A stretch of DNA of 64,000 nt from a virus. A program made the translations under genes and the position numbers. Of the stretch, positions 2,659 through 63,718 are shown in pieces. The first letter of the stretch is position 1; the number at the start of each line of letters is the position of its first letter. The notes beneath the pieces are model-generated. The model was not told where the DNA came from. It saw nothing but the letters and a program-made list of their open reading frames with translations, and did no database searches. The stretch is taken from the IMG/VR virus record IMGVR_UViG_3300020182_000007; one strand, written 5' to 3'.

Positions 2659-3105
2659 TTATGCTTGTTTCCAACCGTTTTTACCTACCTCTAAGTTTGA
2701 CATTGCTTTTATAACATCATCAATTGTAGCAACATTACCTTTTGTTACATACCAATTGCGTTTGGTACGACCTCCGCTGCCGTCTGTTGGTTGTGCGACT
2801 ATCTGCATTTCTTTTGGTGCCAATGGTTCATAATCGTCAGAGTTAAGAATTCTCCAAGTAAAACTATAATCCAAATCTTTTATTCCAAATATTTCAGTTC
2901 CGGTATTTCCTTTAGTCTTTGTATTCATGGTAAAAAAACCATGGCTATAGTCTACTTCCCATGTTGTAATCCCGGTTGCCTTAATTAATTTTTTTGTTAG
3001 TTCTGTACGTTCTTTTAGCCTTAACTTAGCATCTTGATTAGAAGTACTATCATCAGCGAATTGAGATTCATTGATAAACTGTTCAAATAATTTAATGTGT
3101 TTCAT
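2659..3105 (-). CDS. hypothetical protein with capsid-targeting-like N-terminal tag (MKHIKLFEQFINES)
   Basis: ORF track; the N-terminal motif is shared with many ORFs in the window. Confidence 0.75.
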   Translation of the reverse strand: MKHIKLFEQFINESQFADDSTSNQDAKLRLKERTELTKKLIKATGITTWEVDYSHGFFTMNTKTKGNTGTEIFGIKDLDYSFTWRILNSDDYEPLAPKEMQIVAQPTDGSGGRTKRNWYVTKGNVATIDDVIKAMSNLEVGKNGWKQA

Positions 3106-3121
3106 TTTATATTTTGTTTTA

Positions 3122-3382
3122 TTAAACTGAATAACCGGCGTCTGATAAGTACGATTGTACTACGTCAAGTGCATCATCAAATCCTTTGTTTTTTTCTACA
3201 CCCGCATTTGGTCCCCATTCTTCTTGCATCCAGTATTCTAATGACTCAAATCCTTCGTCTTCCCAATCTCTGTTTTTTGGAAATTGAGACTTAAATTCAT
3301 CTCCAATATTATAAGGATCTATATCATCCCATGATTTTCTACCTTCTGTGATAAACTGTTCGAATAATTTAATGTGTTTCAT
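3122..3382 (-). CDS. hypothetical protein with capsid-targeting-like tag (MKHIKLFEQFITEG); start probably 3382 rather than 3397
   Basis: The second ATG begins the shared motif; the GATATATA motif lies upstream at 3409-3416. Confidence 0.75.
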   Translation of the reverse strand: MKHIKLFEQFITEGRKSWDDIDPYNIGDEFKSQFPKNRDWEDEGFESLEYWMQEEWGPNAGVEKNKGFDDALDVVQSYLSDAGYSV

Positions 3383-3408
3383 AATGTTTATTTTCATTTT
3401 TTATAATC

Positions 3409-3416
3409 TATATATC
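3409..3416 (-). promoter_or_regulatory. putative late promoter GATATATA (one of about 11 copies)
   Basis: tatatatc on the + strand at 3409, 6398, 15572, 19926, 20102, 33506, 39903, 47201, 48544, 55970 and 61347, mostly at or near gene boundaries upstream of minus-strand genes. Confidence 0.65.
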
Positions 3417-3430
3417 TTTTATTTTTACAA

Positions 3431-3469
3431 ATAAAAAGGGCAGAGATAGTAGCGAACTTTTCTCTGCCC
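3431..3469 (-). terminator. intrinsic terminator after nrdA with an unusually long loop
   Basis: Minus strand GGGCAGAGA-AAAGTTCGCTACTA-TCTCTGCCC-TTTTTAT: perfect 9-bp GC-rich stem plus U-tract. Confidence 0.8.
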
Positions 3470-3516
3470 AAGCCGTAACTATTACGGTCCTAAAATCCGA
3501 TCGTATTTCAGATCGG
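3438..3516. ncRNA. three-hairpin structured element containing 23S rRNA helix-69-like sequence
   Basis: Three adjacent stems (GGGCAGAGA/TCTCTGCCC, CCGTAA/TTACGG, CCGATC/GATCGG). Positions 3472-3493 GCCGTAACTATTACGGTCCTAA match conserved 23S rRNA 21/22, and GTAGCGAA lies at 3449-3456. Confidence 0.55.
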
Positions 3517-3523
3517 CGTTTCT

Positions 3524-5149: not shown

Positions 5150-5161
5150 GTGTAATTTTAT

Positions 5162-5380
5162 TTAATTATTGTTATTTCCCCCTTCTGTTTCAATCCATAC
5201 ATGTGCTCCACAACTTAGGGGTTTATCAGGGCTATACACTACTTTGCTAGGACCTAATATTTTTACTTCATGTGCATATGTATTATCCTTGTATGTTTTA
5301 CAAGTTAATACAGGATCTTTAACATTGTTCTTTCTATTAGATTTTATTACGTGTTGGTTAACGTGAATAATTGTTTTCAT
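5162..5380 (-). CDS. phage hypothetical protein (72 aa) between nrdB and nrdA
   Basis: Tiles between the RNR genes; IHVNQH...YSPDKPLSCGAHVWIET resembles a small protein recalled from other phages (unverified). Confidence 0.75.
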   Translation of the reverse strand: MKTIIHVNQHVIKSNRKNNVKDPVLTCKTYKDNTYAHEVKILGPSKVVYSPDKPLSCGAHVWIETEGGNNNN

Positions 5381-5383
5381 AAT

Positions 5384-6364
5384 TTAAAACAAATCATCTT
5401 CAGTAATTGATTTGCTTTTCTTATTATAATCGGTACTTTTCTTGTAGAAGAAATCTCCTTCTTTAGTTGCTGTAATTTCTACATCAAACCATAATGTCTT
5501 TTCAATTTCAGTAAAATCAACATCAAATACAGGTTTCATACCGATGCGAGTTAATGAGTTATTGAATCTGTTTTTAATAAAGTTCTGTATAGTTTCTTTT
5601 GACAAAAATGAAAGTTCACCTTGCTCAAAGATCCAATCTAATATTTTACATTCAGCAACATAAGCCTTCTTGCATGCTGAATCTATTAGTTGTTCAAACT
5701 CCTCATCGAACCATTCTGGATTTTCTTCTTTAATAATATTAATAAGTTCTGATCCAAAGTTTCCGTGAATTTCTTCTTCTTTTGATGTTGCTTCAACTAC
5801 ATTTGAGATTCCTTTAAATAAGTTCTTCTCTTTGTTAAACGACATCATAATTAAGAACTGACTAAACAGACTTACATGTTCTATAAATAATGAGAACAGT
5901 AATACTGATTTAGTATACATTTTATCATCTCTACTTCTTGTACCGTCTAAGTATTTCTTTAAGTATGAAATTCTGTCTTTAATTGCAGGAATTTCAACTA
6001 CACTTTTAAAATCATCTTCTAATCCAAGGACTCTAAGTAATTGTGCGTAAGCATCTTTATGTCTTACTTCAGATTCTGCAAAAGTCATTCCAACATCACC
6101 AACTTCTGTAATAGGCATTCTTTTATAAAGATCTGCCCAAAAAGTTTTAACATTAACTTCAATTTGTGCGATCGCAAGCATTGCTCTCTTAATAACTTCT
6201 CTTTCAGAATCAGAAACCTTAGTTTTAAAATCGTCAATATCTGTAGTGAAGTTAAATTCGGTATGAATCCAATATGAGTGTCTAATTGCGTCTTTATACG
6301 CTAACAATTGTGGGTATTCATATGGTAATATATTTGTTCTCGGTTGAAAAATGTTTTTATTCAT
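5384..6364 (-). CDS. nrdB: class I ribonucleotide reductase beta subunit (class Id-like)
   Basis: Ferritin-like ligands E69, E99-x-x-H102, Y106, IEHVSLF and EEEIHG; Lys73 at first ligand +4; C-terminal DFFYKKSTDY. Confidence 0.95.
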   Translation of the reverse strand: MNKNIFQPRTNILPYEYPQLLAYKDAIRHSYWIHTEFNFTTDIDDFKTKVSDSEREVIKRAMLAIAQIEVNVKTFWADLYKRMPITEVGDVGMTFAESEVRHKDAYAQLLRVLGLEDDFKSVVEIPAIKDRISYLKKYLDGTRSRDDKMYTKSVLLFSLFIEHVSLFSQFLIMMSFNKEKNLFKGISNVVEATSKEEEIHGNFGSELINIIKEENPEWFDEEFEQLIDSACKKAYVAECKILDWIFEQGELSFLSKETIQNFIKNRFNNSLTRIGMKPVFDVDFTEIEKTLWFDVEITATKEGDFFYKKSTDYNKKSKSITEDDLF

Positions 6365-6438
6365 ATCTTATCGTAGCTGTGTTTTATTTAGTTAATCTAT
6401 ATATCATATAGATGGTATCATGGCTTATATCTATAAAA

Positions 6439-7842
6439 TTATTTTTCAAATCTTTTTTTGAGTTCGTGAGCCTTTTCGTAATACTGGTACGATAATTTCT
6501 TATAATCTTTTCGTTGCTCATACAAGTCTCCTAGTATGTTTTTAAGAACTGAATCTTCTTTCTTATATACAACACCATTCTCACAAACTATTTCTTCTGT
6601 ATTCTTCCTGCGTTGCTCTATTTGAGTCTTAGGTATTATATCTACATATGCTTCTGGTGATATATTAAACTGTCTCATTACTGAAGGATATAGTGAAGCA
6701 AAATCAAATGCGCTTACTCCAGAATAATATCCAACTATTGGTTGTTTTACAAATGCACCTGCGTATTTGCCATCTTTTTGATTATCTTTCTGATTATAAT
6801 CAACCCCAATCTTGTGATTTTGCTCAGCCATCTTACGAGCCATTAATGCTTCGGTTACTGCAACGGGGCTTGCTGCTTTGTATAAAGGCATTTGTGTAAT
6901 CGTTGCAAGAGTAAGTAAAACTTCCATTGATTTTAATTTTTCGTCAATATAATATACTAAAATAGAATCTACTACATTATAAAACACATACTTTTGAAAA
7001 TCATTTTCATAAAGATCTTGTAGAGAGCCCGTGTGCTTTATTTTAGCAACATCAAGAACTTGGCCAGCAACAAAATCAAGGCGATTTGATTCTTTTACCT
7101 TTACCGATCTGTCATATTTGTCATATAATTGCATATAATCTAAAATACCCATATGTAAAGGTCTACTATCGTTACTATCAAGAGCTCCTGTTACTGCAAT
7201 TTCAGTTAGATCTATCTGGAGTCTTTTACAACGATTTACAATATACTGCCAGTCATAGTTTATAAAATTCCATCCTGTCATCATTGGGAATTTAGGTAGG
7301 AATTTATGCAAGAACGTATATAACATGTTGTATTCATCCTTAAATTTATAGTAGCTAAACTCCCAATCTTGATCGTATTTCCTAAAGTGCTTTAGTGTGT
7401 CATCCTCAATCTTCTTGATTTGTTCGCTAGATAAATCATCAAGACCTAAGACGATAGCCTTGCGTTCAGGTGTAATAATGGAGAACGCTAATATTCTAGT
7501 TCTAGCCTCTTCCGCTTTTGGAAAACCATCTACTATTTCGGTTTCAATATCGACAAAATATGTTCTTGGCATATTAAACTCGAATATTTCTTTCCGATCA
7601 TTCTCAGGAAGAGAATCCATAAAATAGACTAGAGAAAACTTATTAAAGTTTCTAGAGCGCTGTCTTTTAAGAGGACGTCCATCCCAATTTGTATATGTTT
7701 GATCTTTCCACTTTTCATCTTCACCAGCAACTACCCAATTTTCAAATTGAGATACTGGATACCTTTTAAAGGCTACCTTGCCTTCTTTGTTGTAGTATGA
7801 AACAATGACTTCGTTGGCTTTTTGTTCAATATCTAATAGCAT
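6439..7842 (-). CDS. polB: family B DNA polymerase, N-terminal subunit (3'-5' exonuclease plus motif A)
   Basis: Exo I FVDIETE, Exo II GWNFINYDWQY, Exo III YNVVDS, motif A FDFASLYPSVMRQFNISPE. Ends in the first fingers helix (EQRKDYKK...). Confidence 0.95.
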   Translation of the reverse strand: MLLDIEQKANEVIVSYYNKEGKVAFKRYPVSQFENWVVAGEDEKWKDQTYTNWDGRPLKRQRSRNFNKFSLVYFMDSLPENDRKEIFEFNMPRTYFVDIETEIVDGFPKAEEARTRILAFSIITPERKAIVLGLDDLSSEQIKKIEDDTLKHFRKYDQDWEFSYYKFKDEYNMLYTFLHKFLPKFPMMTGWNFINYDWQYIVNRCKRLQIDLTEIAVTGALDSNDSRPLHMGILDYMQLYDKYDRSVKVKESNRLDFVAGQVLDVAKIKHTGSLQDLYENDFQKYVFYNVVDSILVYYIDEKLKSMEVLLTLATITQMPLYKAASPVAVTEALMARKMAEQNHKIGVDYNQKDNQKDGKYAGAFVKQPIVGYYSGVSAFDFASLYPSVMRQFNISPEAYVDIIPKTQIEQRRKNTEEIVCENGVVYKKEDSVLKNILGDLYEQRKDYKKLSYQYYEKAHELKKRFEK

Positions 7843-7859
7843 TCTAATTATTTTAGAAG

Positions 7860-7886
7860 TTATATTAGCTAAAGTTGTATTGTTTC
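7860..7886 (-). promoter_or_regulatory. putative promoter GAAAC-N16-ATATAA
   Basis: Minus strand AGAAACAATACAACTTTAGCTAATATAAC, 18 nt upstream of the polB N-subunit start. Confidence 0.7.
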
Positions 7887-7908
7887 TAACATATTTGCTA
7901 GATTACAT

Positions 7909-7964: not shown

Positions 7965-8504
7965 TTAATATTCAAAAGGCGGGGTACCGTAATCCTTTCT
8001 CTTAACAGCGTACCATGTTCCCTTAGTTTCAAAGTACCACCATTGTGTAGTTTCTATAATCCATATTTTACCGTTAGGTGATACTTGTTTATAACCTCCT
8101 CTAGTAAAGTTCTTAGTTACTGGTACTCCATCTTCCCATGTCTTATTAGTAGATTGTGCATCCATTGATTTGCCAGAAAAATATCCTAAATAAACCCTTT
8201 CTTCTGCATTTTCATCTTTTGCAAATTGCATTAATGCAGTAGAAGGTTTAGCTGATTCGCTTAAATTAAATGATTCAAACGTGCTAACGTATTTCATCTT
8301 TTTCTTTTTCTTTTTCTTTTTAAATATTTCTTTAGCGTCTCCTTGTCCTGATGGTACATCTCCAGAACCTGTAGTTCCTCCTGATGGAAGTTGAAGCTTA
8401 CCCATACCTCCCATATTTCCTGGATGCGATCCAGAACCAGGACTAATACCGTCATATTCGTTTAATTCAGATTCTGAAAGTTTTTCATTTTTTGTGCTAG
8501 ACAT
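7965..8504 (-). CDS. hypothetical protein: Gly/Ser-rich N-part, poly-Lys, internal MKYVSTFESF tag; start probably 8504
   Basis: ORF track 7965..8549 overlaps the upstream stop; the ATG at 8504 avoids the overlap. Confidence 0.65.
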   Translation of the reverse strand: MSSTKNEKLSESELNEYDGISPGSGSHPGNMGGMGKLQLPSGGTTGSGDVPSGQGDAKEIFKKKKKKKKMKYVSTFESFNLSESAKPSTALMQFAKDENAEERVYLGYFSGKSMDAQSTNKTWEDGVPVTKNFTRGGYKQVSPNGKIWIIETTQWWYFETKGTWYAVKRKDYGTPPFEY

Positions 8505-8532: not shown

Positions 8533-10368
8533 TTACCAAATGTATCCAAAATCTTCTACTTGCTTTAATTTATCAGATACATCTTTAGCATATCTTTTAA
8601 TTTCTTGATCGTAGTAATTTCCAGAATATCCAGAATCTTTTTCTATTTTAGCTTGGTTAGAAGAACTTACATATCTTTGGAAATCATCAAGGATATATTG
8701 CATGTGCCTTGCTGCTTCTGATAGTTTTGCTTCGCTACCCTTTTTGTTTCTTCCTATTATAATATCTCCGTATTTTCCTTTTTCTCCTTTAACAAGACCG
8801 TCTTTAATTTGCTTAGTTATAGTATCGATAGCATCGGCAACCATTTTATCTAAAGGCATTTTTGAGGCTCTATCTGAAATAATAGTGTTGTATCTGTCTA
8901 AGTTAGCTTTCTTAAAATCTTTATCAGATTTAAAAGATATAGCGCCCGCTTTAGAGTCAGCTCTTTCATCTCTTTTTGCGGTTGTAGAATATCTTGCTTT
9001 AAGAATATCTAAATCTAAGCAATATGCTCTATCTGCTAATTCAGCAACTTTAGTTAAACTTGAAATACCACTTCCATAAGAATCATTAGAACTTGATTTG
9101 TCAAAACCAGAACTATCATCTCTTTTAGTCTTTTGTAAAGATTTTTTTCTATCTTTTGAATTGTATTTGTTTTGCCATTGCATATTCATCCATTCATTAG
9201 AACCATCTGTAATTGCTAATAAAGTATTTGCTGGAATAGTGCTAACGCCATAAGAACCACGAGCAGCGTATGGATTTTCTTTTTCGTTTGTTGTAAAGTA
9301 TAAATAAACTGCGTTTTGTCTCTTTTCTTTTCTTGCTGCTTGAGGATCTATTTCAATAATATCTACATCTTGAACTTTATCAAGTGCAATTTTAGACATG
9401 TTGTAAAATGCTTTAGGAAGATCCTTAGGCATTTTGTTACCTCCAGTTAAGATGCTTGCAAGTTTTACAGATGCAAACGCCTCATTAATTAAAGATTCAT
9501 TAGTCATTGAAACTAATTCTTGTGCAATTTTCTTTGCTTTAGCACCTTTATGTCCGTATGATTCTACCGTGTCTAGTGCATCATCAATTTCCATTCCATG
9601 CAATTCTCCCATGTCTCCGCCTCTTTCGTCTAAAAGATCAGCTAAGATTGATTCAGCCTCTGTAGCTTCTTTTGATTCAGTTAAAAAGTTTACAAAGTCT
9701 CTAAATGATTCATATATAAATTGTGATTTCTTTTCTTCCTTTATTTGTACTGGGAATTTCTTGCCTCCAAATTCGAATTCTTTTTTACCTTCGTCTTTTG
9801 CTTTTTTAGCGGCTGCAACGAATGCTCTACCCTCGTCGAGTTCTTCTTCATTTACTGTAATTTGTGAAAGTGCTTTTTTACCAAATTTTGAAAGTGAAAT
9901 ACCCTCTTCAGATATACTAAAGAATTTATTATTTCTTCGCATCCACCTAGGAGAATCGGTTGACATTTCTTTTAAGATACTATTAAACTCTTCTTGTGTA
10001 ATTTTACCATCAGAAATAGCCTCAAGCATTTTATTTCTAATTTTTGCGCTTTTACCAACAGTAACTGCGGGATAGCTTTCAGTATATCTTCTCTTGATAA
10101 CAATCTTAGATTCATTAGCAGAATTAGATTCTTCGATGTAATCGTTTAAACCAGCATCGTCCCATCCGTCTTCAGATGCTAATACTGCTTCAAGATCTTT
10201 TCTAGCTCCAGTTAGTTCAACTTCTGGAAAACCACTTGGTCCTTCGTTATTAACAATTTCCATTTTAACCTTATGTTTCTTAAGTAATTTTTTCAGTACT
10301 CTAGATTCTGGATCTGTTGCGTCCATTATAACCGATGCTTCAGTTATAAATTGTTTAAAATTTATCAT
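8533..10368 (-). CDS. putative internal head (virion cargo) polyprotein, 611 aa
   Basis: Starts MINFKQFITEA; internal NES/NEA/LTES linkers; charged composition. Confidence 0.6.
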   Translation of the reverse strand: MINFKQFITEASVIMDATDPESRVLKKLLKKHKVKMEIVNNEGPSGFPEVELTGARKDLEAVLASEDGWDDAGLNDYIEESNSANESKIVIKRRYTESYPAVTVGKSAKIRNKMLEAISDGKITQEEFNSILKEMSTDSPRWMRRNNKFFSISEEGISLSKFGKKALSQITVNEEELDEGRAFVAAAKKAKDEGKKEFEFGGKKFPVQIKEEKKSQFIYESFRDFVNFLTESKEATEAESILADLLDERGGDMGELHGMEIDDALDTVESYGHKGAKAKKIAQELVSMTNESLINEAFASVKLASILTGGNKMPKDLPKAFYNMSKIALDKVQDVDIIEIDPQAARKEKRQNAVYLYFTTNEKENPYAARGSYGVSTIPANTLLAITDGSNEWMNMQWQNKYNSKDRKKSLQKTKRDDSSGFDKSSSNDSYGSGISSLTKVAELADRAYCLDLDILKARYSTTAKRDERADSKAGAISFKSDKDFKKANLDRYNTIISDRASKMPLDKMVADAIDTITKQIKDGLVKGEKGKYGDIIIGRNKKGSEAKLSEAARHMQYILDDFQRYVSSSNQAKIEKDSGYSGNYYDQEIKRYAKDVSDKLKQVEDFGYIW

Positions 10369-10388: not shown

Positions 10389-12230
10389 TTATATATTCTT
10401 TAAAAATTGATTAAACGTTTGTAGTGTACTCTCATTAGTAGACATAGATGTTTCTAATTTTAATTTTAGTTCACTATACATTGAGTGTATTTGTTTAGGA
10501 GTTAATTTTTTAAATAGTTTTTCATCATCATCTAATAATGCATTTCTAACTTGAGTTGCTGATATATTATCATTATTTCTTGGAATTTCAAAAAGGCCAA
10601 AATCAGTCCTAACTCCTAAATCTTCTCTGTATTCTGGCTTATCTACCTGATATGAATATGTTTTAATTCTATCAGATCCTGTACCCCATAACACCGGCTC
10701 ATATCCATCTGCTCTCATTGTATTAAACATTAAATCTATAGCACCTCTGTCTATAACATATACCTTCTCTATTGGGTATTTCTTTTTAAGTTGCTTTAAC
10801 ATTTTAACTTGAGTATCTTCGTCATATGGTCTCTTAAAAGCATCTTCTTTTTTCTTATTCTTTGCCTTAACTAAAAAGATTACTACTGGATATCCATTTT
10901 GTTTATTAATTGTTTCAACAACTTTAGCATGTCCCATCGTAAACGGCTGGAATCTGCCAACAAACATGTTTACTGGTTTTTTACCCTGTTCTGGATATTT
11001 TACAGTTAATGCCTCAGTAATTGGGCTTACTTGATGCTTTAGATTTTCGTGGTTTAAGAATGTTTTAAAATTCATCATTGATAAATCTTCATTGTTTTGT
11101 AACATTACAACCGCTTCTATTTTTTTAACTATCTCATTGATTTGCTGTAGTAGATCTGCGTTAATAATATCAGTTTCTTTAATTCTTTTCTTATTAAAAG
11201 AACTCAGTGCTATTTTGTAAAGCTCAGAAAGTATAGGGTTTGAAACTAGTTCTATTGTTTTTTCATTTTTAATAAACGCAGTGTTTAGTGAAAATTCTGG
11301 AGAATCTGCAAAACCCGCTGATTCAAATTTAACTCCAATGTATTTTGATGCGTTCTTATCTATATATGCATTAAATAATTGTGAAGTTAATTCAATGTAC
11401 CTAAGGTCAGCTTTCTTTTCTACTAACTCTATTTTTTCAATATCGAATGCTGAAAAGAATTCAACAATTTGTAGTAGTGCTATTTGGTACATGTCAGATG
11501 GCTTTCTATTCTCTCTTGGAGATTCAGCTTCACAAATTTTAAAATTCTTAACGCTTTTTCCATTAAAGAAATTAATTACTAAAGAATCTATAGTACTATC
11601 TAAATCGTCGTTAAGTGCTGTAGAATTTAAAGAAGAATTAAAAATACTGTACATTTTTCTAGAAAACGAAATGTCTTTAAAGTTTTCAGAATACTCAGAC
11701 TCTGAAACTGACATTAGTTTAGTGAGTTCTTCTTTTTGAAGGTCGGTTAACTTACCTTGATGTAGAACCTGTGGCCTTTGTACTTCTAATATATCTGCCC
11801 ATTTGTTTAGAATTTTTGGATCTCTAATTACTTTTTTAATTAATGTTTCATCAACTGGGTTAAGAATCTGGATATGTGTTAACATTAAATTGTTCTTTGG
11901 TATTCTATCGTATTTAATGTTAACCGTTTTTGAATCAATCATATAGTCAAATCCAAATTTCCAATCTAATGGCATTTCTTTTTTACCAGCATCTTCTAGC
12001 GCATTAAAGTGAGAGATTGCATTCTCATAGTACCTCACGATTGTTCTATCAACAAGATTCATTGGATTCTTACCACCACTTTTGTAATGATTAAATCCAC
12101 TGTTTGTTTTTTGTACATGAAAATTTGATGCTTGTAATTTTTCAGTTACAACGCATGAATGTTCTAGCATTTGCTGAAAATCATTTATGCTCGATTCACT
12201 AAAGTAAGTTCTTAAATTCTGTAATGCCAT
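10389..12230 (-). CDS. two-domain protein: degenerate ligase-like N-domain plus HxGH-type nucleotidyltransferase (cytidylyltransferase/NMNAT-like)
   Basis: C-domain NMFVGRFQPFTMGH...GTGSDR...ISATQVR is the Rossmann-type nucleotidylyltransferase signature. N-domain VTEKLQASNF resembles ligase motif I. Confidence 0.75.
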   Translation of the reverse strand: MALQNLRTYFSESSINDFQQMLEHSCVVTEKLQASNFHVQKTNSGFNHYKSGGKNPMNLVDRTIVRYYENAISHFNALEDAGKKEMPLDWKFGFDYMIDSKTVNIKYDRIPKNNLMLTHIQILNPVDETLIKKVIRDPKILNKWADILEVQRPQVLHQGKLTDLQKEELTKLMSVSESEYSENFKDISFSRKMYSIFNSSLNSTALNDDLDSTIDSLVINFFNGKSVKNFKICEAESPRENRKPSDMYQIALLQIVEFFSAFDIEKIELVEKKADLRYIELTSQLFNAYIDKNASKYIGVKFESAGFADSPEFSLNTAFIKNEKTIELVSNPILSELYKIALSSFNKKRIKETDIINADLLQQINEIVKKIEAVVMLQNNEDLSMMNFKTFLNHENLKHQVSPITEALTVKYPEQGKKPVNMFVGRFQPFTMGHAKVVETINKQNGYPVVIFLVKAKNKKKEDAFKRPYDEDTQVKMLKQLKKKYPIEKVYVIDRGAIDLMFNTMRADGYEPVLWGTGSDRIKTYSYQVDKPEYREDLGVRTDFGLFEIPRNNDNISATQVRNALLDDDEKLFKKLTPKQIHSMYSELKLKLETSMSTNESTLQTFNQFLKNI

Positions 12231-12244
12231 GTTATATTATTTAG

Positions 12245-13531
12245 TTACCGTCCGTATTTTATTATACCCATAAGCTGGTTTATAGCAGCAAATGTACCTG
12301 TTAGTTTAAATGTCTTACCATTATATACGAACACAAGCCCTTCAGTTGGGATAATTGATTCTATTCCACCTATTCTATCTAGTCTTTTAAGTTCAGATTC
12401 AACCTTTTCTATTTGGTCAATACTTCCTCCTTTTTTAATAGCCTCGGCCTCAGTTCTAATTTGATTATGTAACCTTTGCATTTCAGCATCTGGGTTTGCA
12501 GCAACAAAGTTACTAGCATTCATTAAGATAACACTACCTAGTTCTAAGAATAAATCTTCAAATGGTCTAATGTTTTCTTTTTGCTTCTTCTTAACGTTTT
12601 CTTTATCAAATTTCTTAATCAATGCAGATTGATCCTTTCCAAGTTCTTTATCAAGACTTCTTATATTAAGAGTTTTCTTGTCATCATATGCCCATCTTAA
12701 TAATAAACCTTCTTTATAATCTTGTGTTAAATCCGGAAAGTTCTTATCAATAGTTTCTCTCCACCACATTTCATGGTATCTTGAAACCTCGTCAGCATCT
12801 GTTAAATTATAACGAGTTCTTAGGTCTTCAACTTTCTTAATGAATTTTGCTTTATTAGCCTCAAAATCAATGTCCTTACCAAGTTTAATGATTTGTGGGG
12901 GAATTATTGAAAATGTTTTACCCATATCAAGCTTAAGGTCTTTAAGAGCCTTTGCAATTGATGCAGCGTATTTTGTTTCCTCTCCTATTTCATTACCTTC
13001 ACCATCAGTATGTTTAATACCGTGAAACTGAATAATATCCCTGTCGTAATAGATTACATTTGGGTTCTTCGAGTAGATTAGCTCCATATTCATAAAACTC
13101 TTACCATTATTAAAAACCTCTAAGTCTTTTGCTGGTAGCTTATTTAATGAATTTGCTAAATCTTCTGCTGCGAATTGAAAAGTATCTCTTACTAATGTAC
13201 TTCCATGGTCTTTAAATTTATCTTTGAATTGTTGGAGAGTCATTGGATTCCTCATATCATTAATACCTCTGGCAAATTTAACCTCTCCATCCATTACGGT
13301 TGCAAATAAGTTTTGTCCGTCTGTTTTTTCAGTAGCCTCTTCTTCAAAGTTAAGTTCGCCTCTTAAGCCAAACTCAACGATCTTTTTAAAGTCACCAAAC
13401 GTTAAACTCTTTTCATCAAATGGATGTGACATATGTCCTGCTGCTCCACCTTCTAAGATTAGTTTAGATTCATAAATATTTCCGTTAGATCTCTCTACTA
13501 AGAATTCTCCGTATGATAATAATTTGTTCAT
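12245..13531 (-). CDS. covalent nucleotidyltransferase (RNA ligase/capping-enzyme fold) of unknown substrate
   Basis: Motif I ATEKTDGQN, III NMELIY, IIIa IQFHG, IV EGLVF and V FKLTG in the correct order; N-terminal tag LLSYGEFLVERS and EGGAAGHMSHPFD. Confidence 0.65.
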   Translation of the reverse strand: MNKLLSYGEFLVERSNGNIYESKLILEGGAAGHMSHPFDEKSLTFGDFKKIVEFGLRGELNFEEEATEKTDGQNLFATVMDGEVKFARGINDMRNPMTLQQFKDKFKDHGSTLVRDTFQFAAEDLANSLNKLPAKDLEVFNNGKSFMNMELIYSKNPNVIYYDRDIIQFHGIKHTDGEGNEIGEETKYAASIAKALKDLKLDMGKTFSIIPPQIIKLGKDIDFEANKAKFIKKVEDLRTRYNLTDADEVSRYHEMWWRETIDKNFPDLTQDYKEGLLLRWAYDDKKTLNIRSLDKELGKDQSALIKKFDKENVKKKQKENIRPFEDLFLELGSVILMNASNFVAANPDAEMQRLHNQIRTEAEAIKKGGSIDQIEKVESELKRLDRIGGIESIIPTEGLVFVYNGKTFKLTGTFAAINQLMGIIKYGR

Positions 13532-13558: not shown

Positions 13559-15535
13559 TTATCCTAATGAACTTGTTAGCATTCCAACAGCAGCTCCATA
13601 GTCTCCATCAACTTTACCTAAAATACCATCAATAACTTCATTTGCCTTTGCTTCGTCAAAATCTTTTCCAAATGCCTTTTGTAAAACATTAGTCGCATAT
13701 TCTTTAAAGTCTTCATCAGAAGTAACTTCTGCTTCATTAACAATTGATTCTTCAACCTTTACTCCAAATCCATATTTAATAACTTCACCGGATTCAAATC
13801 TTATCTCTTGAACTCCTCCATTGTTTGTGATTGATATTACAGTGCCATATTCTGGGTAAGTTTCTCCGACGATCCATTCGCTAGATAACATTGTACTTTC
13901 AGTTACCTTATAAGTTTTTCCGTCAAAATCAAATTCTTTATCTCCAGCTTCTTTAGCTTTTCTAACTGCATCTCCGAAAGCGTTACCTTCTTCAATTTCA
14001 GCTTCAGTAACTATTGATTCATTGTATAAATGAACATAGTTGCTTCCTTTTTCAGAATAAACTGATTTAATTTCAAATTCTTTTTGTGCTTTAGTATAAT
14101 ATGCTTTAAAGAATAAGTTACCGTCTAATTCTCCAAAGAAATGATCTGATTTACCGATAAAGAATTCAGCGTTTGGATAAAGCTCTAAAACTTCTTCTTT
14201 TGTTTTAGCCTTTAAAACATCTCTGTTAAAGTCTTTTACAAATTTAGCTTCAGTAACTACTGATTCTTGAACGTTGTTTTCCCACCAGTCTTGGAGTTTT
14301 TCAAATTCTGAATCACCCATGTTTGAAATCATAAAATCTATAATATCTTCATAGTTATCTTTTTCATCTTGATAGAATCCAGGAGTATCGATATAATCTT
14401 TACCCATGATTTTCTTGATTTGAGCCTCTCCCATGCCATCAATTTCTTCTAAGAAGTCTTCAAAATCTTTGGTGTTTTTAAAACCTTTACCTTCAGTAAC
14501 TACTGATTCTTTAATTCCTAATTCTTTTAAGTTTTTAACGTATTTTCCAGCCTCTTCTTCGTTATCATCAGCAGCATGCGCCAATAAACCAGCTGCGATT
14601 AATCTTTTGTAGATTTCTCCTTTAACTAATTCAAAGTCTATTGAATCACTTGTATTTTCCCAAGTATCTGCTACAAATTCTGGATCAATCCAACCATAAC
14701 CTCTTTTAATATCTTTAATCATGTCATTAAGGTCCATCTCGAATCTTTTTACAGCGCCTTCGACAATCTTTTTAGATTCATTTAGTTTAGAACTAATATC
14801 TACTCTTACATCTTCTCCTTCAAACTGTGCCTGAAATAGATTTACTAAATCTTCTGCTATTTTAGGCTCTCCAATAGACTCTAAATAAAGAGCAGTACCT
14901 TCGACTATTCCAATTCCAGACCAGCCTGCTGCGTTCGATATTCTACCAGCAACTTGCGAGATAGCGAATGTTATTTTAGATCCTGGAATTTTAATTTCCA
15001 TGCCTTTGAGTTCAGCAAGCTTTACAACTACCTTTCCAATATTACCCTTAATCTTTTTCATAGTAGGGTACGCTTCTCTAGAAAAGTTAGCGTCTTCCAT
15101 TGCATCAAAGTATATTTGCTTCAATACTCCTAAAGCGTGTAACTTTGAGTTTTTATTAGAGAACGCAGAATATTCATTAAATATTTTAACATATTGGTTA
15201 AACACTTTTTTAGCGTCTCTTTTACCAGTAATAATAACAGCTTCATTAGCCATATAATCTTCGAATTCTGGTGCAATTTCTATGGATTCTAAAATGTTAG
15301 CTCCATTAAATGAGTATACTCCTGATTCGTTAACTTTAATTCCTTGAATTCTGTTAAAAAATTCTTCTCTGTTTTCTTCTTCAAGTTCAGAAACTTTAGT
15401 TACTCCGTACTCTTTTAAAAGATCTCTAAAAGATCTTGCAGATTCTTCTCTTACTACTGTGTTATTAGATTCTAATTCAGCTGCGATTTTAGTCGAGTTA
15501 GTTTTTGCAAATTGTTCAAATGATTGTAATGCCAT
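13559..15535 (-). CDS. putative internal head/core polyprotein, 658 aa, with repeated ES(V/I)V(T/N)E linkers
   Basis: Starts MALQSFEQF; four ES[VI]V[TN]E[AG] repeats; GATATATA motif upstream. Confidence 0.6.
   Translation of the reverse strand: MALQSFEQFAKTNSTKIAAELESNNTVVREESARSFRDLLKEYGVTKVSELEEENREEFFNRIQGIKVNESGVYSFNGANILESIEIAPEFEDYMANEAVIITGKRDAKKVFNQYVKIFNEYSAFSNKNSKLHALGVLKQIYFDAMEDANFSREAYPTMKKIKGNIGKVVVKLAELKGMEIKIPGSKITFAISQVAGRISNAAGWSGIGIVEGTALYLESIGEPKIAEDLVNLFQAQFEGEDVRVDISSKLNESKKIVEGAVKRFEMDLNDMIKDIKRGYGWIDPEFVADTWENTSDSIDFELVKGEIYKRLIAAGLLAHAADDNEEEAGKYVKNLKELGIKESVVTEGKGFKNTKDFEDFLEEIDGMGEAQIKKIMGKDYIDTPGFYQDEKDNYEDIIDFMISNMGDSEFEKLQDWWENNVQESVVTEAKFVKDFNRDVLKAKTKEEVLELYPNAEFFIGKSDHFFGELDGNLFFKAYYTKAQKEFEIKSVYSEKGSNYVHLYNESIVTEAEIEEGNAFGDAVRKAKEAGDKEFDFDGKTYKVTESTMLSSEWIVGETYPEYGTVISITNNGGVQEIRFESGEVIKYGFGVKVEESIVNEAEVTSDEDFKEYATNVLQKAFGKDFDEAKANEVIDGILGKVDGDYGAAVGMLTSSLG
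14002..14511. repeat. three dispersed direct repeats (cttcagtaactactgattctt) spaced 243-246 nt
   Basis: Identical 21-mers at 14248-14268 and 14491-14511; a 1-mismatch 19-mer at 14002-14020. They encode ES[VI]VTE. Confidence 0.9.
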
Positions 15536-15570: not shown

Positions 15571-17079
15571 TTATATATCTCCTTCAAATTTGACCTTTTT
15601 AACATCAAACTTAAACTTTTGTTCATTGTATATTTTTTGTCTAGCCTTCGAGTGTCTAATTAGATAATTATCCCAATCTGGACTTGATATATCGTCTACA
15701 AAATCTACGATAGTAACACTGTCTTTTGATGCATGTTGCCTAAGACCACGTCCAATTGATTGTCTAATAATAACTTCTGATTTAAACGATTCTGTGAAAA
15801 ATATATTATGCATTTTATTAATTGAAATACCGGTAGAAAAAGTTCCATAAGACGCTACGATAACTACTTCGTCTCCTAGCTCCATTTTCTTTTTATATTC
15901 TTCTCTAATATCCTTGTCAGTACCTCCATCAACATAGTATATGATCTTATCACCATCTTGTCTAAGTTTATCATATATTTTTTTACCATGTTCAATTCTG
16001 TGAAAAAGCACTAGGCTATTGCCACGTACTCTAGAAATAATATTACAAATAAAATTAAGACGTCCGGTTGAATTAATAATATAATTTTGCTCGAATTTAA
16101 ATACGTCTTTGCTTTCATATTTATTGAAAGCCATTTCTTTAAAAGCATCTTTTGCTCCTTGTGTCGCATAATCCATTTCAATTACTTTTACTCTACATCC
16201 AGCGATATACCCTTCATTTTGTAAAAAGTTTGCACTTACCTCAGTTATTAATGGCCCAGTATACGACATTAATGTTAATCTATCTAGCGTTCCTGTTTTA
16301 GGTATAGTACCAGATAGACCATATCTATATTCTGCGTTTTTGCATTTAGATAGAATAGTTTTAATTGACTGTGATTTTGCCTTATGCGTTTCATCAATTA
16401 TAACAGCTTCAAATTGGTCAAAGTATTCAGTTGGTTTTTTAATTAGCGATTGATATGTTCCTATCACTACATTCCTACCTGCTCTAATTTTTTGTCCAGA
16501 ATAAATTTGTTGTATTTTAATATTGACTTGATTTTTGTAGTTGTAATCAGTAAAGTCCTCGCTTGCTTGAATTACAAGAGAAACATTAGGTACTATAAAT
16601 AAAACCTTTTCTGCTTTTTGTTTTTCTAATATATATGCAACTGTTAAAAATGAAATTAAAGTCTTACCAGCAGATGTTGCTAATTCTGATAAACACTTTC
16701 TAAATTTTAATATATTAAACGCAGCGTCAATTTGATAGTCTCTTGGTTTAATTTCTGAATCATTAAAGAAGTCTGATGACCATTTTTGAAATGATTCTTG
16801 ATTAATTTCACGATCAAATAATTGAGTGATTCCATGGATCTTAAGATCTATTTTGTACTCTTTACATACGTCCATTACCTCTTTCCATAAGCCGGCAGGA
16901 ATCCACTTGTCGTCTTTTACATATGAAATATACCCGTCCCAAACACCTCTTTTGACAAGTGGATTAAATCTCCACGAGTCAATTCTCTTTGTTAAAGATA
17001 TATTTAATTGCTCGAGTTCTAGCGCAGTAGCACTATCTATTCTCAACAATTGTTTATTCTCTGTTAAACTGAGCTCCAT
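15571..17079 (-). CDS. uvsW: UvsW-like superfamily 2 DNA helicase
   Basis: PRDYQ, LATSAGKT, IIDETHK, GLSGT, ASYGTFSTGISI, QSIGRGLR; 502 aa, similar in size to T4 UvsW. Confidence 0.93.
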   Translation of the reverse strand: MELSLTENKQLLRIDSATALELEQLNISLTKRIDSWRFNPLVKRGVWDGYISYVKDDKWIPAGLWKEVMDVCKEYKIDLKIHGITQLFDREINQESFQKWSSDFFNDSEIKPRDYQIDAAFNILKFRKCLSELATSAGKTLISFLTVAYILEKQKAEKVLFIVPNVSLVIQASEDFTDYNYKNQVNIKIQQIYSGQKIRAGRNVVIGTYQSLIKKPTEYFDQFEAVIIDETHKAKSQSIKTILSKCKNAEYRYGLSGTIPKTGTLDRLTLMSYTGPLITEVSANFLQNEGYIAGCRVKVIEMDYATQGAKDAFKEMAFNKYESKDVFKFEQNYIINSTGRLNFICNIISRVRGNSLVLFHRIEHGKKIYDKLRQDGDKIIYYVDGGTDKDIREEYKKKMELGDEVVIVASYGTFSTGISINKMHNIFFTESFKSEVIIRQSIGRGLRQHASKDSVTIVDFVDDISSPDWDNYLIRHSKARQKIYNEQKFKFDVKKVKFEGDI

Positions 17080-20753: not shown

Positions 20754-21131
20754 TTATCTACCTTTACCTAGAGAAGCACCTAATGCAGCACCTACAAGTC
20801 TAGAAGTTAATAAATCGTAGAATATTCCTTTTTCAATTCCTAAAACTTTGGCAATCATTTTACCAACTGATTTACCGAGAGCAAATCCAGCAAGTCCTCC
20901 AAAAATAGAACCTAAAATACCTTCGTTAGTTAACTCATTATTAAATTTATTAACGTCAAGCTTACCGTCTTCATCAGAGTATTCATTAACGAATTCATTA
21001 ATAGCTGCATCTACTTTAGCTTCTAATTCAGGAGTCCACTCTTCTTGTAGACCTTCGGTTAAAATTAATAAATCAGCATCAGTTATTTGCTGTTCTACTA
21101 AGTATTCTTTAAATGTTTTAATATCTTTCAT
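20754..21131 (-). CDS. tagged hypothetical protein with glycine-zipper hydrophobic C-terminus
   Basis: MKDIKTFKEYLVE start; GILGSIFGGLAGFALG and LVGAALGASLG segments. Confidence 0.7.
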   Translation of the reverse strand: MKDIKTFKEYLVEQQITDADLLILTEGLQEEWTPELEAKVDAAINEFVNEYSDEDGKLDVNKFNNELTNEGILGSIFGGLAGFALGKSVGKMIAKVLGIEKGIFYDLLTSRLVGAALGASLGKGR

Positions 21132-60226: not shown

Positions 60227-60729
60227 ATAACTTTTTCTACATCAATATTAGCTTGTGTTAATAATTCTATACCACCCATATCGCGGTAATCTTCTGAATA
60301 GTAGACTTTAGTTATTCCAGCCTGAATAATTAGCTTTGCGCAATCAAAGCAAGGGCATGTTGTTGTATAAAGCTCTGCTCCTCTACAGCTCATTGTTGAT
60401 TTAGCAACTTTCATAATTGCATTAGACTCTGCATGTAAGACTTCTCTTTTTGTACTAGTAGTTTCTATAGTACAGCATCCATCTTCACATTCATATCCGT
60501 GTTCTTCTACTAAATCAAGTGCGGCGTCTGGATTTTCATAATATACAGTTTCTGTTTTAATTGTTTCACAAGTGTTGTCAAATCCATGTGGCATTCCATT
60601 ATATCCAAATGAAATTAATTGTTGATCTTTAACAATAACGCAACCAACCTTACGCCTCTTAGCATAGCTAAGTTTGGCAAATTGATATGCGGTTTGCATG
60701 TATATTTTTTCTATTGCTATTCTGGGCAT
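60208..60729 (-). CDS. dCMP deaminase
   Basis: KVGCVIV, GYNGMP, HAESNA and PCFDCAK zinc-deaminase motifs. Confidence 0.92.
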   Translation of the reverse strand: MPRIAIEKIYMQTAYQFAKLSYAKRRKVGCVIVKDQQLISFGYNGMPHGFDNTCETIKTETVYYENPDAALDLVEEHGYECEDGCCTIETTSTKREVLHAESNAIMKVAKSTMSCRGAELYTTTCPCFDCAKLIIQAGITKVYYSEDYRDMGGIELLTQANIDVEKVICWNEI

Positions 60730-60736
60730 ATTACAT

Positions 60737-60771
60737 AAAAAAAGTCGTTCACAGTTTATATGAACGACTTT
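60737..60771 (-). terminator. intrinsic terminator (possibly bidirectional)
   Basis: AAAGTCGTTCA/TGAACGACTTT 11-bp stem with flanking A tracts, after the ORF ending at 60793. Confidence 0.75.
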
Positions 60772-60792
60772 AAAAAAGTTTATTACTTTTAA

Positions 60793-61317
60793 TTACATTG
60801 GGATGTTGTTGCCTTCGACACCATCACCGCTTGTAAAAGATTCTTTCATTTCATCAATTTTCTTAGAATAAGATTCTTTCATAGATTCACACATCGCTTC
60901 ATAAGTCTCATTAGATATTTCAGAGTCACTTACTTTTTCATATGATTCTTTCATAGCGTTTGCTGCAACTGCCGCAACTAATGCAGCGTTTTCAGACATA
61001 TATGACTCTACTGTGTGGTCTTCGTATTCATCTCCTTCATAAGAGCATGCTTCGTCAACTACTTGTTTATAACTATCAGCAATCATTTCGGAAACCGCCT
61101 TAACTACAGCTTCTTCATGAGAGGTCTCGTTTGCTTCTTCTTCTTCTTCAGCTTCTTCTTCAGCTTCTTCTTCAGCTTCTTCAGCAACAGGAACTTCTTC
61201 CTCTTTTTCATCGTCTAGATCTTTAGGTTCTCCTAGATCTACGATATCTTTTTCTATTTCTTCAGAACGATCTGCTTCTTGAACGTACTGCTCGAAAGAT
61301 AAAATTCTTTTTGACAT
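60793..61317 (-). CDS. very acidic tagged protein (scaffold/internal-head-like)
   Basis: MSKRILSFEQYVQEA start, EEEA tandem repeats, GATATATA upstream. Confidence 0.65.
   Translation of the reverse strand: MSKRILSFEQYVQEADRSEEIEKDIVDLGEPKDLDDEKEEEVPVAEEAEEEAEEEAEEEEEANETSHEEAVVKAVSEMIADSYKQVVDEACSYEGDEYEDHTVESYMSENAALVAAVAANAMKESYEKVSDSEISNETYEAMCESMKESYSKKIDEMKESFTSGDGVEGNNIPM
61133..61185. repeat. 12-nt tandem coding repeat (ttcttcttcagc)n encoding AEEE
   Basis: Directly visible tandem array. Confidence 0.85.
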
Positions 61318-61363
61318 AATATTTGGTTTGTTTTTAAATGTTTAGTTATATATCTACTTAATC

Positions 61364-61663
61364 TTATATTATTTTTAGACTAAGCGCTGTAGTGCCTTTA
61401 ATGATACGATGTATCACTCCTTTAGGTATTTCAATATCAACTCCAACGATCATATTTATTGGAAGTTCATTATCATATTGAAATCTCCAGTCTGAATCAT
61501 TTAGTACTTTAACTAATCTATCTTCGTTATCCCAGTGCCATTTAAAAAGATGTTCTGGATATTTTTGATCAAAATGTCTTATAATATAACCATCAAATCT
61601 CTCCTCAGTGAAAGGTTTACGTTGGTCATTTATCATATCAATCATTTCTTTATGTGTTACCAT
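61364..61663 (-). CDS. cupin-fold protein
   Basis: FKWHWDNEDRLV...WRFQYDNELP...IEIPKGVIHRIIKG two-motif cupin pattern. Confidence 0.7.
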   Translation of the reverse strand: MVTHKEMIDMINDQRKPFTEERFDGYIIRHFDQKYPEHLFKWHWDNEDRLVKVLNDSDWRFQYDNELPINMIVGVDIEIPKGVIHRIIKGTTALSLKII

Positions 61664-62196
61664 GGTTGATCACTTTTAAGACCAAGCTGTTTGGCAAAAA
61701 ATACACTTGAATAGCATGCCCAAAATCCAGCTTTATCCGGATCCATTTTCTTTTGAAGATCACATTGGTGCCTAGCCCAAAAACTTGCAGCTCTTGCTGG
61801 ATCATCATTCTTAACAGTAGTTGAAGGATCTCCCCATTCAAGTTTTTTTGCAATTATATTTCCATCTTTGTCGGTTCTACCACTGTTTCTATAAACTATA
61901 AACTTAGCCTTACCTCCTCTATCAGGAGAATCTAGTTTAACGTTGATTTGGTTACCGCCTCTAGGTTTATAAATAGCTTTCTTTCCAACTTCTAGATTTT
62001 TAGCCATCCAGCCAGAAGGTCCTTTAAGAATAATATTGTCTTTCGCCCAATATTGTTTTACTTCTTCAAATAGTTCACCATATTTATCGCTACCGAGTCT
62101 AAAGAAAGAATTGGTTAAATCAAGGCCTTCGTCAATATGCGCCTTTAATTCAGGAGATATGTGATTCCAATCTTCAAATGTCTTTACAAATTTCAT
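61657..62196 (-). CDS. tagged hypothetical protein with FWARHQC...AGFWAC motif
   Basis: MKFVKTFEDW start; His/Cys motif, possible metal site. Confidence 0.7.
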   Translation of the reverse strand: MKFVKTFEDWNHISPELKAHIDEGLDLTNSFFRLGSDKYGELFEEVKQYWAKDNIILKGPSGWMAKNLEVGKKAIYKPRGGNQINVKLDSPDRGGKAKFIVYRNSGRTDKDGNIIAKKLEWGDPSTTVKNDDPARAASFWARHQCDLQKKMDPDKAGFWACYSSVFFAKQLGLKSDQPW

Positions 62197-62201
62197 GTTC
62201 G

Positions 62202-62801
62202 TTATTTTTTATAGATTCTTTTTACAAAAGATTCAATATCCTTTTTATCGTATCCTAGTAGATTGCCAACATATCTTGCCTCATCAGGTGTAGAATCGCT
62301 TAGATATCCACCATGATCTGCCGCATAATCAGCAAGTTTTTGTGCCATTTTTTTATCAGTCTTATATAATACCCAAGCGTTTCCTTCCTTCTTATTCTTA
62401 ACCTCAATTAATTTTAAGCCGTTCTCAATACCATGATTCATTGCCTTAATTTCTTTTTTATTATTAGGAGCATAAATAGGCTTATCCATTGTTGATATAA
62501 ATACAAGTTCTCTCTTACCATCAATTACAGTCTGTACTCCATTTATAGTATCATGCGCTTCGGCTGCCCTAATGTTCTCGGTAATAGCTCCTTTCTGATT
62601 AAACATACTTAAATTAACTCTAAATACTTTACCGCTATCAATTGATTTTAGAGTAACTATAAAACCATCTGAATCAGTAACAGTACACCTACTTCCTAGA
62701 TATAGAACTTCTTTTCCATTTTCTAAAGCGAAGAAAGTTTTCTTATCTATTTTTTGACCGTACTTCTTAACAAAATCCTCAAATAACTGTATGTGCTTCA
62801 T
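62202..62801 (-). CDS. tagged hypothetical protein (199 aa)
   Basis: MKHIQLFEDFVKK start. Confidence 0.7.
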   Translation of the reverse strand: MKHIQLFEDFVKKYGQKIDKKTFFALENGKEVLYLGSRCTVTDSDGFIVTLKSIDSGKVFRVNLSMFNQKGAITENIRAAEAHDTINGVQTVIDGKRELVFISTMDKPIYAPNNKKEIKAMNHGIENGLKLIEVKNKKEGNAWVLYKTDKKMAQKLADYAADHGGYLSDSTPDEARYVGNLLGYDKKDIESFVKRIYKK

Positions 62802-62805
62802 ATCC

Positions 62806-63063
62806 TTAATCGTTTTCTATAGTTGCGAGTTTTGTATAATATTTAGGATCCTCAAAAAGGTGATCTCTTGCTATTTCCATCGCTACTTTTTTATCATTAG
62901 TATGTTCCATCTCAACTACAATGCCTCTTTCATACTCAGCGTCTAGTCCTTCTAGATCTACTTTATGTTTTTTAGCAATATCCGCTAATGACATATCTCC
63001 AGATATTCCTCCTGGAATTACTTCCTCATTAATAAATTCTTCAAATAGTTTTATATGCTTCAT
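62806..63063 (-). CDS. tagged DUF5661-like protein
   Basis: MKHIKLFEEFINEE start; GIVVEMEHT...AMEIARDHLFEDPKYYTKL recalled as the DUF5661 pattern. Confidence 0.7.
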   Translation of the reverse strand: MKHIKLFEEFINEEVIPGGISGDMSLADIAKKHKVDLEGLDAEYERGIVVEMEHTNDKKVAMEIARDHLFEDPKYYTKLATIEND

Positions 63064-63069
63064 TTTTTA

Positions 63070-63369
63070 TTATATTTTATTTATTAGATCCTGTCTGTCT
63101 AATTGTTTATAAACTTCTTTACGAACCTTTTCCATCTTCTCAGCATACTTTGGATCGTCATTGCGATTAAATACAATTTGTTGAGTTAGTGAACCACTGA
63201 TCTTCTTAACATCACCTTTACGAGTCTTAATTAACCATGCTGCTAAATCTTTAATTCCTAAGTCTTTAAATCTACCTTCAGCTTCAGGTGCATCTGACTT
63301 ATTAAAGTCTGGAGCTCCTGCTGGTTTTTTCTCTGTAATGAATTGTTCGAATAATTTTATATGCTTCAT
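63070..63369 (-). CDS. tagged hypothetical protein (99 aa)
   Basis: MKHIKLFEQFITEK start. Confidence 0.7.
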   Translation of the reverse strand: MKHIKLFEQFITEKKPAGAPDFNKSDAPEAEGRFKDLGIKDLAAWLIKTRKGDVKKISGSLTQQIVFNRNDDPKYAEKMEKVRKEVYKQLDRQDLINKI

Positions 63370-63370
63370 A

Positions 63371-63718
63371 TTAATCAGGGTATTTTACCATTGTATTTCT
63401 TGTTAGACTCTTATCAGTATTTTTTACAAATCCTAAATCTTTATAAAAACTAGCAAGTCTACTAATCGAAGTGGCTCCAAAATCTTTAGATGGTGTTAAA
63501 AATATAGGCTTGCCTTCTTTGTTTGCAAAATCTATAATTAACTTCATTACTTTAGTTCCGATGCCTTCTCCTCTTTTTTCTTTGGGTATTTCAATTCTAG
63601 ATAATTCTAAATATCTTTCAGTATTATATAAGTCTAATACAACTCCAAATTCATCTTCTAAATGTTGGAGTGCCATTTCTTCATTTAAAAATTCCTCGAA
63701 TAATTTAACCCTTTTCAC
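63371..63718 (-). CDS. tagged GNAT-family acetyltransferase; start GTG at 63718
   Basis: GTG directly after the upstream stop gives MKRVKLFEEFLNEE; acetyl-CoA motif A IEIPKEKRGEGIGTKVM and FYKDLGF. Confidence 0.8.
   Translation of the reverse strand: MKRVKLFEEFLNEEMALQHLEDEFGVVLDLYNTERYLELSRIEIPKEKRGEGIGTKVMKLIIDFANKEGKPIFLTPSKDFGATSISRLASFYKDLGFVKNTDKSLTRNTMVKYPD

Follow-up and report, generated by a model that had tools for sequence, protein, structure and literature searches.

Why do many otherwise unrelated proteins of one virus begin with almost the same residues? This question is raised by IMG/VR virus record IMGVR_UViG_3300020182_000007, an uncultured, large phage from the sea that is related to T4, of which a stretch of 64,000 nucleotides (hereafter the window) was analysed. 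A sequence-only reading of this DNA had likened the shared protein start (the tag) to the capsid targeting sequence (CTS) of phage T4, and had proposed a portable packaging signal for a swappable set of effectors, including enzymes. Our analysis suggests that the tag, a leader of 13 residues, is probably a CTS of the T4 kind, and that this virus has an expanded CTS system. The window was compared with three relatives: the IMG/VR contig G010 (166.6 kb), which is collinear with window positions 2-62212 at 63-77% nucleotide identity; G004, a complete, terminally repeated relative of 256 kb, whose helicase is 54% identical; and a third tag-bearing relative, L001. The minus strand carries all credible genes of the window, and all window genes located below lie on it. 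The GC content is about 32%, and Shine-Dalgarno sequences are lacking.

The consensus of the tag is M-K-H-[IV]-K-L-F-E-[QE]-F-[ILV]-[NT]-E, in which F7, F10, I11 and E13 are best conserved. The strict motif, defined as [FYW][EKDNQ][EQDK][FWY][ILV].E, occurs nine times in the 20,518 residues of 57 window proteins; eight of these copies lie at residues 4-8 of their proteins, and there is one further copy. Four or five looser N-terminal variants were found beyond the eight strict ones. The 12 N-termini quoted earlier were all present at their start positions. A weight matrix of 14 columns, trained on G010 and G004 alone and with the Met column omitted, was scanned over the window. The N-termini at 3105, 3382, 63063, 63369, and 63718 scored 31-44 bits and those at 62801, 61317, and 21131 scored 9-20 bits; the best score in 20 shuffles was 8.3. 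The N-termini at 13531, 62196, 8297, and 15535 score no higher than the shuffle maximum, and their membership rests on tagged orthologues in the relatives. The tag at 10368 is a T4-length form of 10 residues, which is unsuited to the 14-column matrix. At the DNA level, a degenerate form of the tag had four matches in the window and none in 100 shuffles. Even phages that share no more than 48-54% helicase identity retain the tag.

The proteins behind the tag had been called unrelated, and BLASTP bore this out, save for a 36-residue module common to two polyproteins and a marginal match between the proteins starting at 10368 and 3382 (E 0.009). It also holds that no replication or tail protein of the window starts with the tag. 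The DNA upstream of the tagged genes showed no conservation, and synonymous codon use in 42 tags was the same as genome-wide use; selection therefore acts on the peptide rather than on a DNA cassette, and, as far as these sequences tell, the conserved object is the peptide. Searched in 596 Gb of prokaryote genomes, the tag pattern had no match, whereas IMG/VR gave more than 117 viral stretches that carry it. The tag is thus not a general bacterial N-terminal feature, and a general bacterial motif was ruled out on this ground.

The tag was compared with the internal proteins of T4 (NC_000866), in which ipII and ipIII begin MKTYQEFIAE/A and ipI begins MKTFKEF...ITE/A (a slash marks the putative or known cut after Glu). 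According to a review of amber-suppression work on the T4 CTS, residues 4 and 7 serve targeting and residues 8 and 10 serve processing, and Asp at position 10 stops cutting but not targeting (PMC9026906). The residues F7, F10, I11 and E13 of the tag match those T4 residues with identical spacing. When a degenerate DNA pattern derived from the tag was searched in the T4 genome (169 kb) with up to two mismatches, only the starts of ipII and ipIII were found, and the reversed-pattern control gave none. As expected of a CTS, the tag is a short N-terminal leader (10-19 residues) on otherwise unrelated proteins.

The protease and head genes were read from the relatives, not from the window's own genome. 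In G010 the gene order is gp4-like, gp2-like, portal, a tagged gene of 134 residues, a protease-scaffold fusion of 642 residues, and the capsid protein, which mirrors T4 genes 20-67-68-21-22-23. A small gene 3' of the portal was present in 78 of 80 portal-centred marine metagenome loci; it had 40 N-terminal variants, nearly all with the motif. A megablast comparison did not place the window's own contig among these loci, and an exact string of 52 bases from the window had no match in IMG/VR. No small gene was found between portal and protease in the 462-kb record LR756500.1, which carries nine tags and a Peptidase_S77 match. Peptidase_S77 scored above the Pfam cut-off in 14 of the 20 large tag-bearing IMG/VR contigs, a figure that covers tag-bearing contigs only. 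These 14 include all three contigs that are at least 90% complete, and the six contigs lacking a match are all at most 54% complete. Peptidase_S77 was also found in G010 and G004. When the G010 protease was aligned to T4 gp21, the gp21 residues His85 and Ser140, its catalytic pair, matched His and Ser.

A hydrophobic-[ILV]-x-E motif is common to the tags, the polyprotein linkers, and the capsid protein and protease of the relatives. Their capsid protein begins MANL[IL]NE/A and their protease has LLI[VL]E/; the T4 counterparts are MAKINE.. in gp24, LLIE9 in gp21, and FLTE65/A in gp23. The linker form [EN][ST][ILV][ILV]xE[AGE] has five copies in the tagged window proteins and none in 13,922 residues of untagged ones.

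The same junction marks where modules have been exchanged. The two-module protein of 199 residues at 62202..62801 starts with the tag MKHIQLFEDFV, followed by module A (to about residue 62), a degenerate junction MFNQKGAITE/N, and module B. In G010, module B stands directly behind an N-terminal tag (MKHIKLFEQFINE/R, ending ..FINE/R) at 68% identity. In L001, module A is followed by ..SEINE/G and a P-loop kinase (Pfam AAA_33), and the counterpart of this kinase in G004 stands directly behind ..FINE/G at 52% identity. These swaps fall exactly at the I-x-E junction: the neighbours change and the junction is kept. The tagged-gene content differs among the window, G010, L001, and G004, and at least 105 unique tagged proteins (74-349 residues) in at least 59 unrelated families were found in IMG/VR. 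The words portable and swappable of the sequence-only reading are therefore supported, since so many body families are tagged and close relatives differ in their tagged genes. A module of 36 residues is shared at 53% identity by the two polyproteins 8533-10368 (residues ~170-205) and 13559-15535 (residues ~507-542), so modules move from one polyprotein to another in a single genome.

Plain A/T runs aside, no 8-mer is more enriched upstream of genes than GATATATA, which has 11 copies on the coding strand and a single copy on the opposite one; eight copies lie 28-47 nucleotides before a start codon. In relatives, a box of the [GA]ATATATA type stands 27-47 nucleotides ahead of the genes for portal, protease, sheath-like, tube-like, and fibre proteins and of the first gene of tag-gene arrays; in L001 it directly follows terminator-like hairpins. 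This placement fits late expression, with the timing read from box position.

From these features we infer the following course. The tagged genes would be expressed late from the [GA]ATATATA-type promoter common to structural genes. F7 and F10, the equivalents of Y4 and F7 in the T4 CTS, would attach the leader to the scaffolding core while the prohead assembles. After shell closure, the Peptidase_S77 serine protease, fused to a scaffold-like region, would cut after the Glu of [ILV]-x-E and so release the mature protein within the head. It would cut likewise near the start of the capsid protein, at its own N-terminus, and in the E-S-[VIL]-[VI]-[TN]-E linkers of the polyproteins; because the linkers carry the cleavage motif, one leader could load several modules. 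The freed proteins would remain in the DNA-filled head and would exit with the DNA at infection. A packaging signal is thus favoured by the likeness to the T4 CTS at mapped positions, the co-occurrence of a T4-type prohead protease, the tagged head-module gene, the common cleavage motif, the swaps at I-x-E, the virus-only occurrence, and the late-type box heading the arrays. The delivery of effectors by injection is plausible, and it probably applies to only part of the tagged set. In this reading the acidic members are more likely core or scaffold material that is broken down, and the neutral and basic members that resemble enzymes are the likelier cargo.

Several points weigh against this reading. 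Packaging and cleavage in this phage and its tagged relatives are deduced from sequence, and the window's protease and head genes from a collinear relative; the protease frequency given above covers tag-bearing contigs only. The N-termini at 62196, 62801, and 15535 have no I-x-E, and some members score at background. Acidic proteins are unlikely to be kept beside packed DNA. A copy of GATATATA at 6398-6405 lies 41 nucleotides upstream of nrdB (5384-6364), and the box also precedes nrdB in G004 (gene 69148-70125), an exception to the rule that late equals structural. Lastly, the tag is absent from the cultured phage that is closest by its capsid protein, Tenacibaculum phage PTm1, although this phage possesses a related capsid protein and protease-scaffold. 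A Peptidase_S77 protease therefore does not imply a tag, and virion data from PTm1, being untagged, are no test of the idea.

The first alternative accepts targeting to the prohead, but takes most tagged proteins for core or scaffold parts of a large head, which are degraded or expelled at maturation rather than delivered as effectors. As an account of the whole set it seems unlikely. The best-conserved tagged gene occupies the position of the T4 core proteins gp67 and gp68, the net charge of several tagged proteins is strongly negative (-42, -47, and -11), which recalls the acidic C-terminal half of gp67, and the polyprotein linkers would yield small pieces. The likeness to gp67 and gp68 includes the small gene between portal and protease and the acidic tail of the relatives' tagged 134-residue protein; it does not extend to family or leader, since PHROGs names no family for this protein and gp67 and gp68 start without a CTS of the internal-protein type. 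Other tagged proteins, neutral or basic, resemble folded enzymes (the RNA-ligase-like, GNAT-like, and DUF5661 proteins and, in relatives, a kinase), and structural parts would not usually form a repertoire of at least 59 families that changes from one close relative to the next. This alternative probably holds for a subset only.

A second alternative, which we consider improbable, is that the leader is a docking or regulatory peptide with no role in the head, such as a chaperone or protease recognition signal (degron), an amphipathic helix for membrane association, or a device for timed pro-enzyme activation in the cytoplasm. By sequence, I4, F7, F10, and I11 would share one face if the leader formed an amphipathic helix. 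The virion location is itself deduced, and tagged enzymes could equally act in the infected cell. Such a role would leave unexplained the match to mapped T4 CTS residues, the tagged gene between portal and protease, the motif on the N-termini of capsid protein and protease, and the promoter box common to structural genes. A third alternative, that the shared start has no function as a peptide, is hardly tenable: A-rich first codons might aid initiation in an AT-rich genome without Shine-Dalgarno sites, and mobile regulatory cassettes occur in T4-type phages (PMC2839356), but a repeated promoter or translation-start cassette spread by recombination is ruled out by the unconserved upstream DNA and the free, genome-typical codon choice, a single paralogous family is ruled out by the unrelated bodies in BLASTP, and chance is opposed by eight N-terminal copies against one internal copy, none in shuffles, and the persistence of the tag at the helicase divergence given above.

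If the T4-type CTS is accepted, its cargo can be considered. Searches of the tagged proteins against Pfam, PHROGs, and NCBIfam named almost no family. The Pfam matches above cut-off among the bodies are DUF5661, a cytidylyltransferase-family domain, and, weakly, GNAT (Acetyltransf_1 alone of the GNAT models). The net charges of the tagged window proteins range from -47 to +7. The clearest enzyme-like member is an RNA-ligase-like protein of 428 residues (12245..13531), which starts MNKLLSYGEFLVE/R and has an invariant KTDG at residues 69-72. Its AF2 model has a predicted local distance difference test (pLDDT) score of 79, and residues 1-33, with pLDDT below 50, lie outside the fold. The best 50 structural matches are all ATP-dependent ligases (top Z 9.0, root-mean-square deviation 3.9 over 187 residues); Foldseek gave E-values of about 5e-3 only, with no match at E ≤0.001. 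The KxDG lysine motif (K69-T-D-G72) is invariant in 14 sequences. There was no Pfam match, and a sequence search of the PDB returned chance-level matches only. At the level of the modelled fold only, the protein belongs to the ATP-dependent RNA ligase superfamily. The expectation that the cargo includes enzymes agrees with this fold and with the cytidylyltransferase-family domain; the GNAT match, below two of three Pfam cut-offs, is weaker. Among 1,218 homologues of the 428-residue protein, the best 120 share 77-100% identity with it and stem from marine metagenomes, Tara among them; the phage lineage is thus common in the sea. No untagged distant homologue is among these best 120, which are all close marine relatives.

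A wider and tentative proposal, which may well not hold, is that the leader would let the packaged and injected proteome of a widespread group of large marine phages be read from their sequences. This might be a big, fast-changing toolkit of at least 59 families, carried singly or in polyproteins that are cut apart, with ready-made RNA-repair-type enzymes (the RNA-ligase-like protein, and the P-loop kinase in relatives) that would enter with the DNA and, ahead of any phage gene expression, counter host defences that cut tRNA or other RNA. If the leader works as in T4, the motif would mark every head-loaded protein of abundant uncultured ocean phages. The injected proteome could then be mined from metagenomes, giving candidates for counter-defence or host takeover by the dozen, enzymes among them, and the cargo would be enlarged by modules strung on protease-cut linkers. 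It would also provide a second, longer targeting tag for packaging foreign proteins in phage heads.

Compared with IPI, IPII, IPIII (and Alt) of T4, whose CTS is cleaved by gp21, the proteins here share a short N-terminal leader on unrelated bodies, aromatics three apart followed by [IL]-x-E, a cleavage motif that also stands on capsid protein and protease, a T4-type Peptidase_S77 protease in the lineage, and a gene content that varies among relatives. The differences are also clear. The leader has 13 residues instead of 10 and its own consensus; the 64 kb contain at least 12 tagged genes, and the complete 256-kb relative has 18 strict tags, versus three internal-protein genes read in T4; large enzyme-like proteins are among the cargo; the polyproteins are joined by a dedicated E-S-V-V-T-E linker; and the protease has a scaffold-like region joined to it. 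The lineage, known here from its sequence, is nearest to large Bacteroidota-type phages (Lak, PTm1, LR756500.1), not to the T-even phages. In the giant phages phiKZ, 201phi2-1, and SPN3US, a related prohead protease cuts after Glu in many internal proteins of the large heads, and part of these proteins enter the host by ejection (PMC5694885). Their motif, however, is A/S/G-x-E and their propeptides, mostly longer than 100 residues, have no common short leader, whereas here a hydrophobic-[ILV]-x-E follows a uniform leader. Literature searches turned up neither an account of this leader nor one of CTS families in marine or huge phages. T4 already shows the principle, and the novelty lies in the scale, the lineage, the enzyme cargo, and the polyprotein linkers.

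The other tagged genes are described along the window. The gene at 2659..3105 encodes 148 residues and starts MKHIKLFEQFINE/S; its body belongs to no known family, and its matrix score is 44.0. The next gene, at 3122..3382 (86 residues), starts MKHIKLFEQFITE/G, scores 41.5, and has a GATATATA box at 3409-3416. An internal copy of the tag had been placed in 7965..8504. The tag is present there (MKYVSTFESFNLSE at Met 8297), but its internal placement is doubtful: in the tagged gene 7965..8297 the tag may be N-terminal or internal. The orthologue in G004, to which the body is 58% identical, is a tagged protein of 113 residues that stands by itself, and for this reason Met 8297 may be the true start. 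The frame is open for 84 codons upstream of Met 8297 (to 8549), with a Gly/Ser-rich stretch and a run of eight Lys from an A-rich tract.

The multi-module protein at 8533..10368 (611 residues) has the T4-length tag MINFKQFITE/A, and a ATATATAA box lies at 10389-10396. It contains an internal tag-like FRDFVNFLTE/S (residues ~222-231) and a linker ESLINE/A (291-297), and its orthologues begin MNFQDFLNE and MNFQNFLNE. The 613-residue protein at 10389..12230 has an internal tag-like MMNFKTFLNHE..SPITE/A (residues ~385-406), followed by the cytidylyltransferase-family domain (422-563; Pfam PF01467, 36.8 bits versus a cut-off of 21). A gene of G010 starts MKHIKLFEQFINE/A and continues with a GRFQP motif similar to that of 10389..12230, a likeness of the motif only. 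The acidic polyprotein at 13559..15535 (658 residues, net charge -47) starts MALQSFEQF without I-x-E, with a GATATATA box at 15572-15579. Its linkers are ESVVTE/G, ESVVTE/A, ESIVTE/A, and ESIVNE/A, and it has an internal strict tag at residue 358. The gene at 20754..21131 (125 residues) starts MKDIKTFKEYLVE/Q, and its G010 orthologue starts MSNTIKTFNEYLTE.

A second group lies near the end of the window. The very acidic protein at 60793..61317 (174 residues, net charge -42) starts MSKRILSFEQYVQE/A, has a GATATATA box at 61347-61354, and has tagged orthologues in G010, L001, and G004. The partially tagged protein at 61657..62196 (179 residues) starts MKFVKTFEDW without I-x-E and has a matrix score of -0.4; the same start is kept in G010 and L001. 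Beyond the two-module protein, the tagged DUF5661 protein at 62806..63063 (85 residues) starts MKHIKLFEEFINE/E, and its domain begins at residue 28 (PF18905, 60.3 bits versus a cut-off of 27). A basic protein at 63070..63369 (99 residues) starts MKHIKLFEQFITE/K. The GNAT-like protein at 63371..63718 (115 residues) has a GTG start and the tag (M)KRVKLFEEFLNE/E; the GTG start is supported because orthologues begin with Met at the tag. Its GNAT matches are weak: Acetyltransf_1 passes (22.3 versus a cut-off of 20.7) and PF13508 fails (23.5 versus 27).

Some observations were made on the head genes of the relatives. In G010 (L132:3482-5410), the protease continues into a long scaffold-like region, acidic and rich in repeats (642 residues in all), with an internal ESLVVE site. 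The same protease-scaffold fusion is annotated in the PTm1 record as ORF-300 (L152). Directly after the G010 capsid gene (L132:257-1798) lies a protein of 513 residues with a tag-like start MKLSKKLMLFEEF. It also has an ESVLITE/A site, a hydrophobic segment, and a long helical stretch rich in Lys and Glu. By its sequence, this protein may serve inside the head or as a scaffold anchored in the membrane.

The closest records to the window are uncultured huge phages, and cultured Bacteroidota phages are more distant. The Rad3-type helicase is 47.7% identical to that of LR756500.1, and about 31% identical to those of Tenacibaculum PTm1, Chryseobacterium MA9V-2, and the Lak phages; a megablast search with 12 kb of the window gave no match in cultured phages. 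PHROGs matches in the window include a split family-B DNA polymerase, ribonucleotide reductase, helicases, a primase, a single-strand-binding protein, and a T4 gp6-type baseplate wedge. The polymerase is encoded by two genes (585-1787 and 6439-7842), between which lie a clamp-like gene, two tagged genes, and both ribonucleotide reductase subunits; G010 is collinear over this region. The 8-mers TATATTTG and GTATATTT are enriched beside GATATATA in the upstream regions of G010 and G004 and on the plus strand of L001. The housekeeping -7 element of Bacteroidota is TAnnTTTG, which 8-mers of this kind fit. These upstream sequences hint that the host belongs to the Bacteroidota and that its polymerase reads the early genes.

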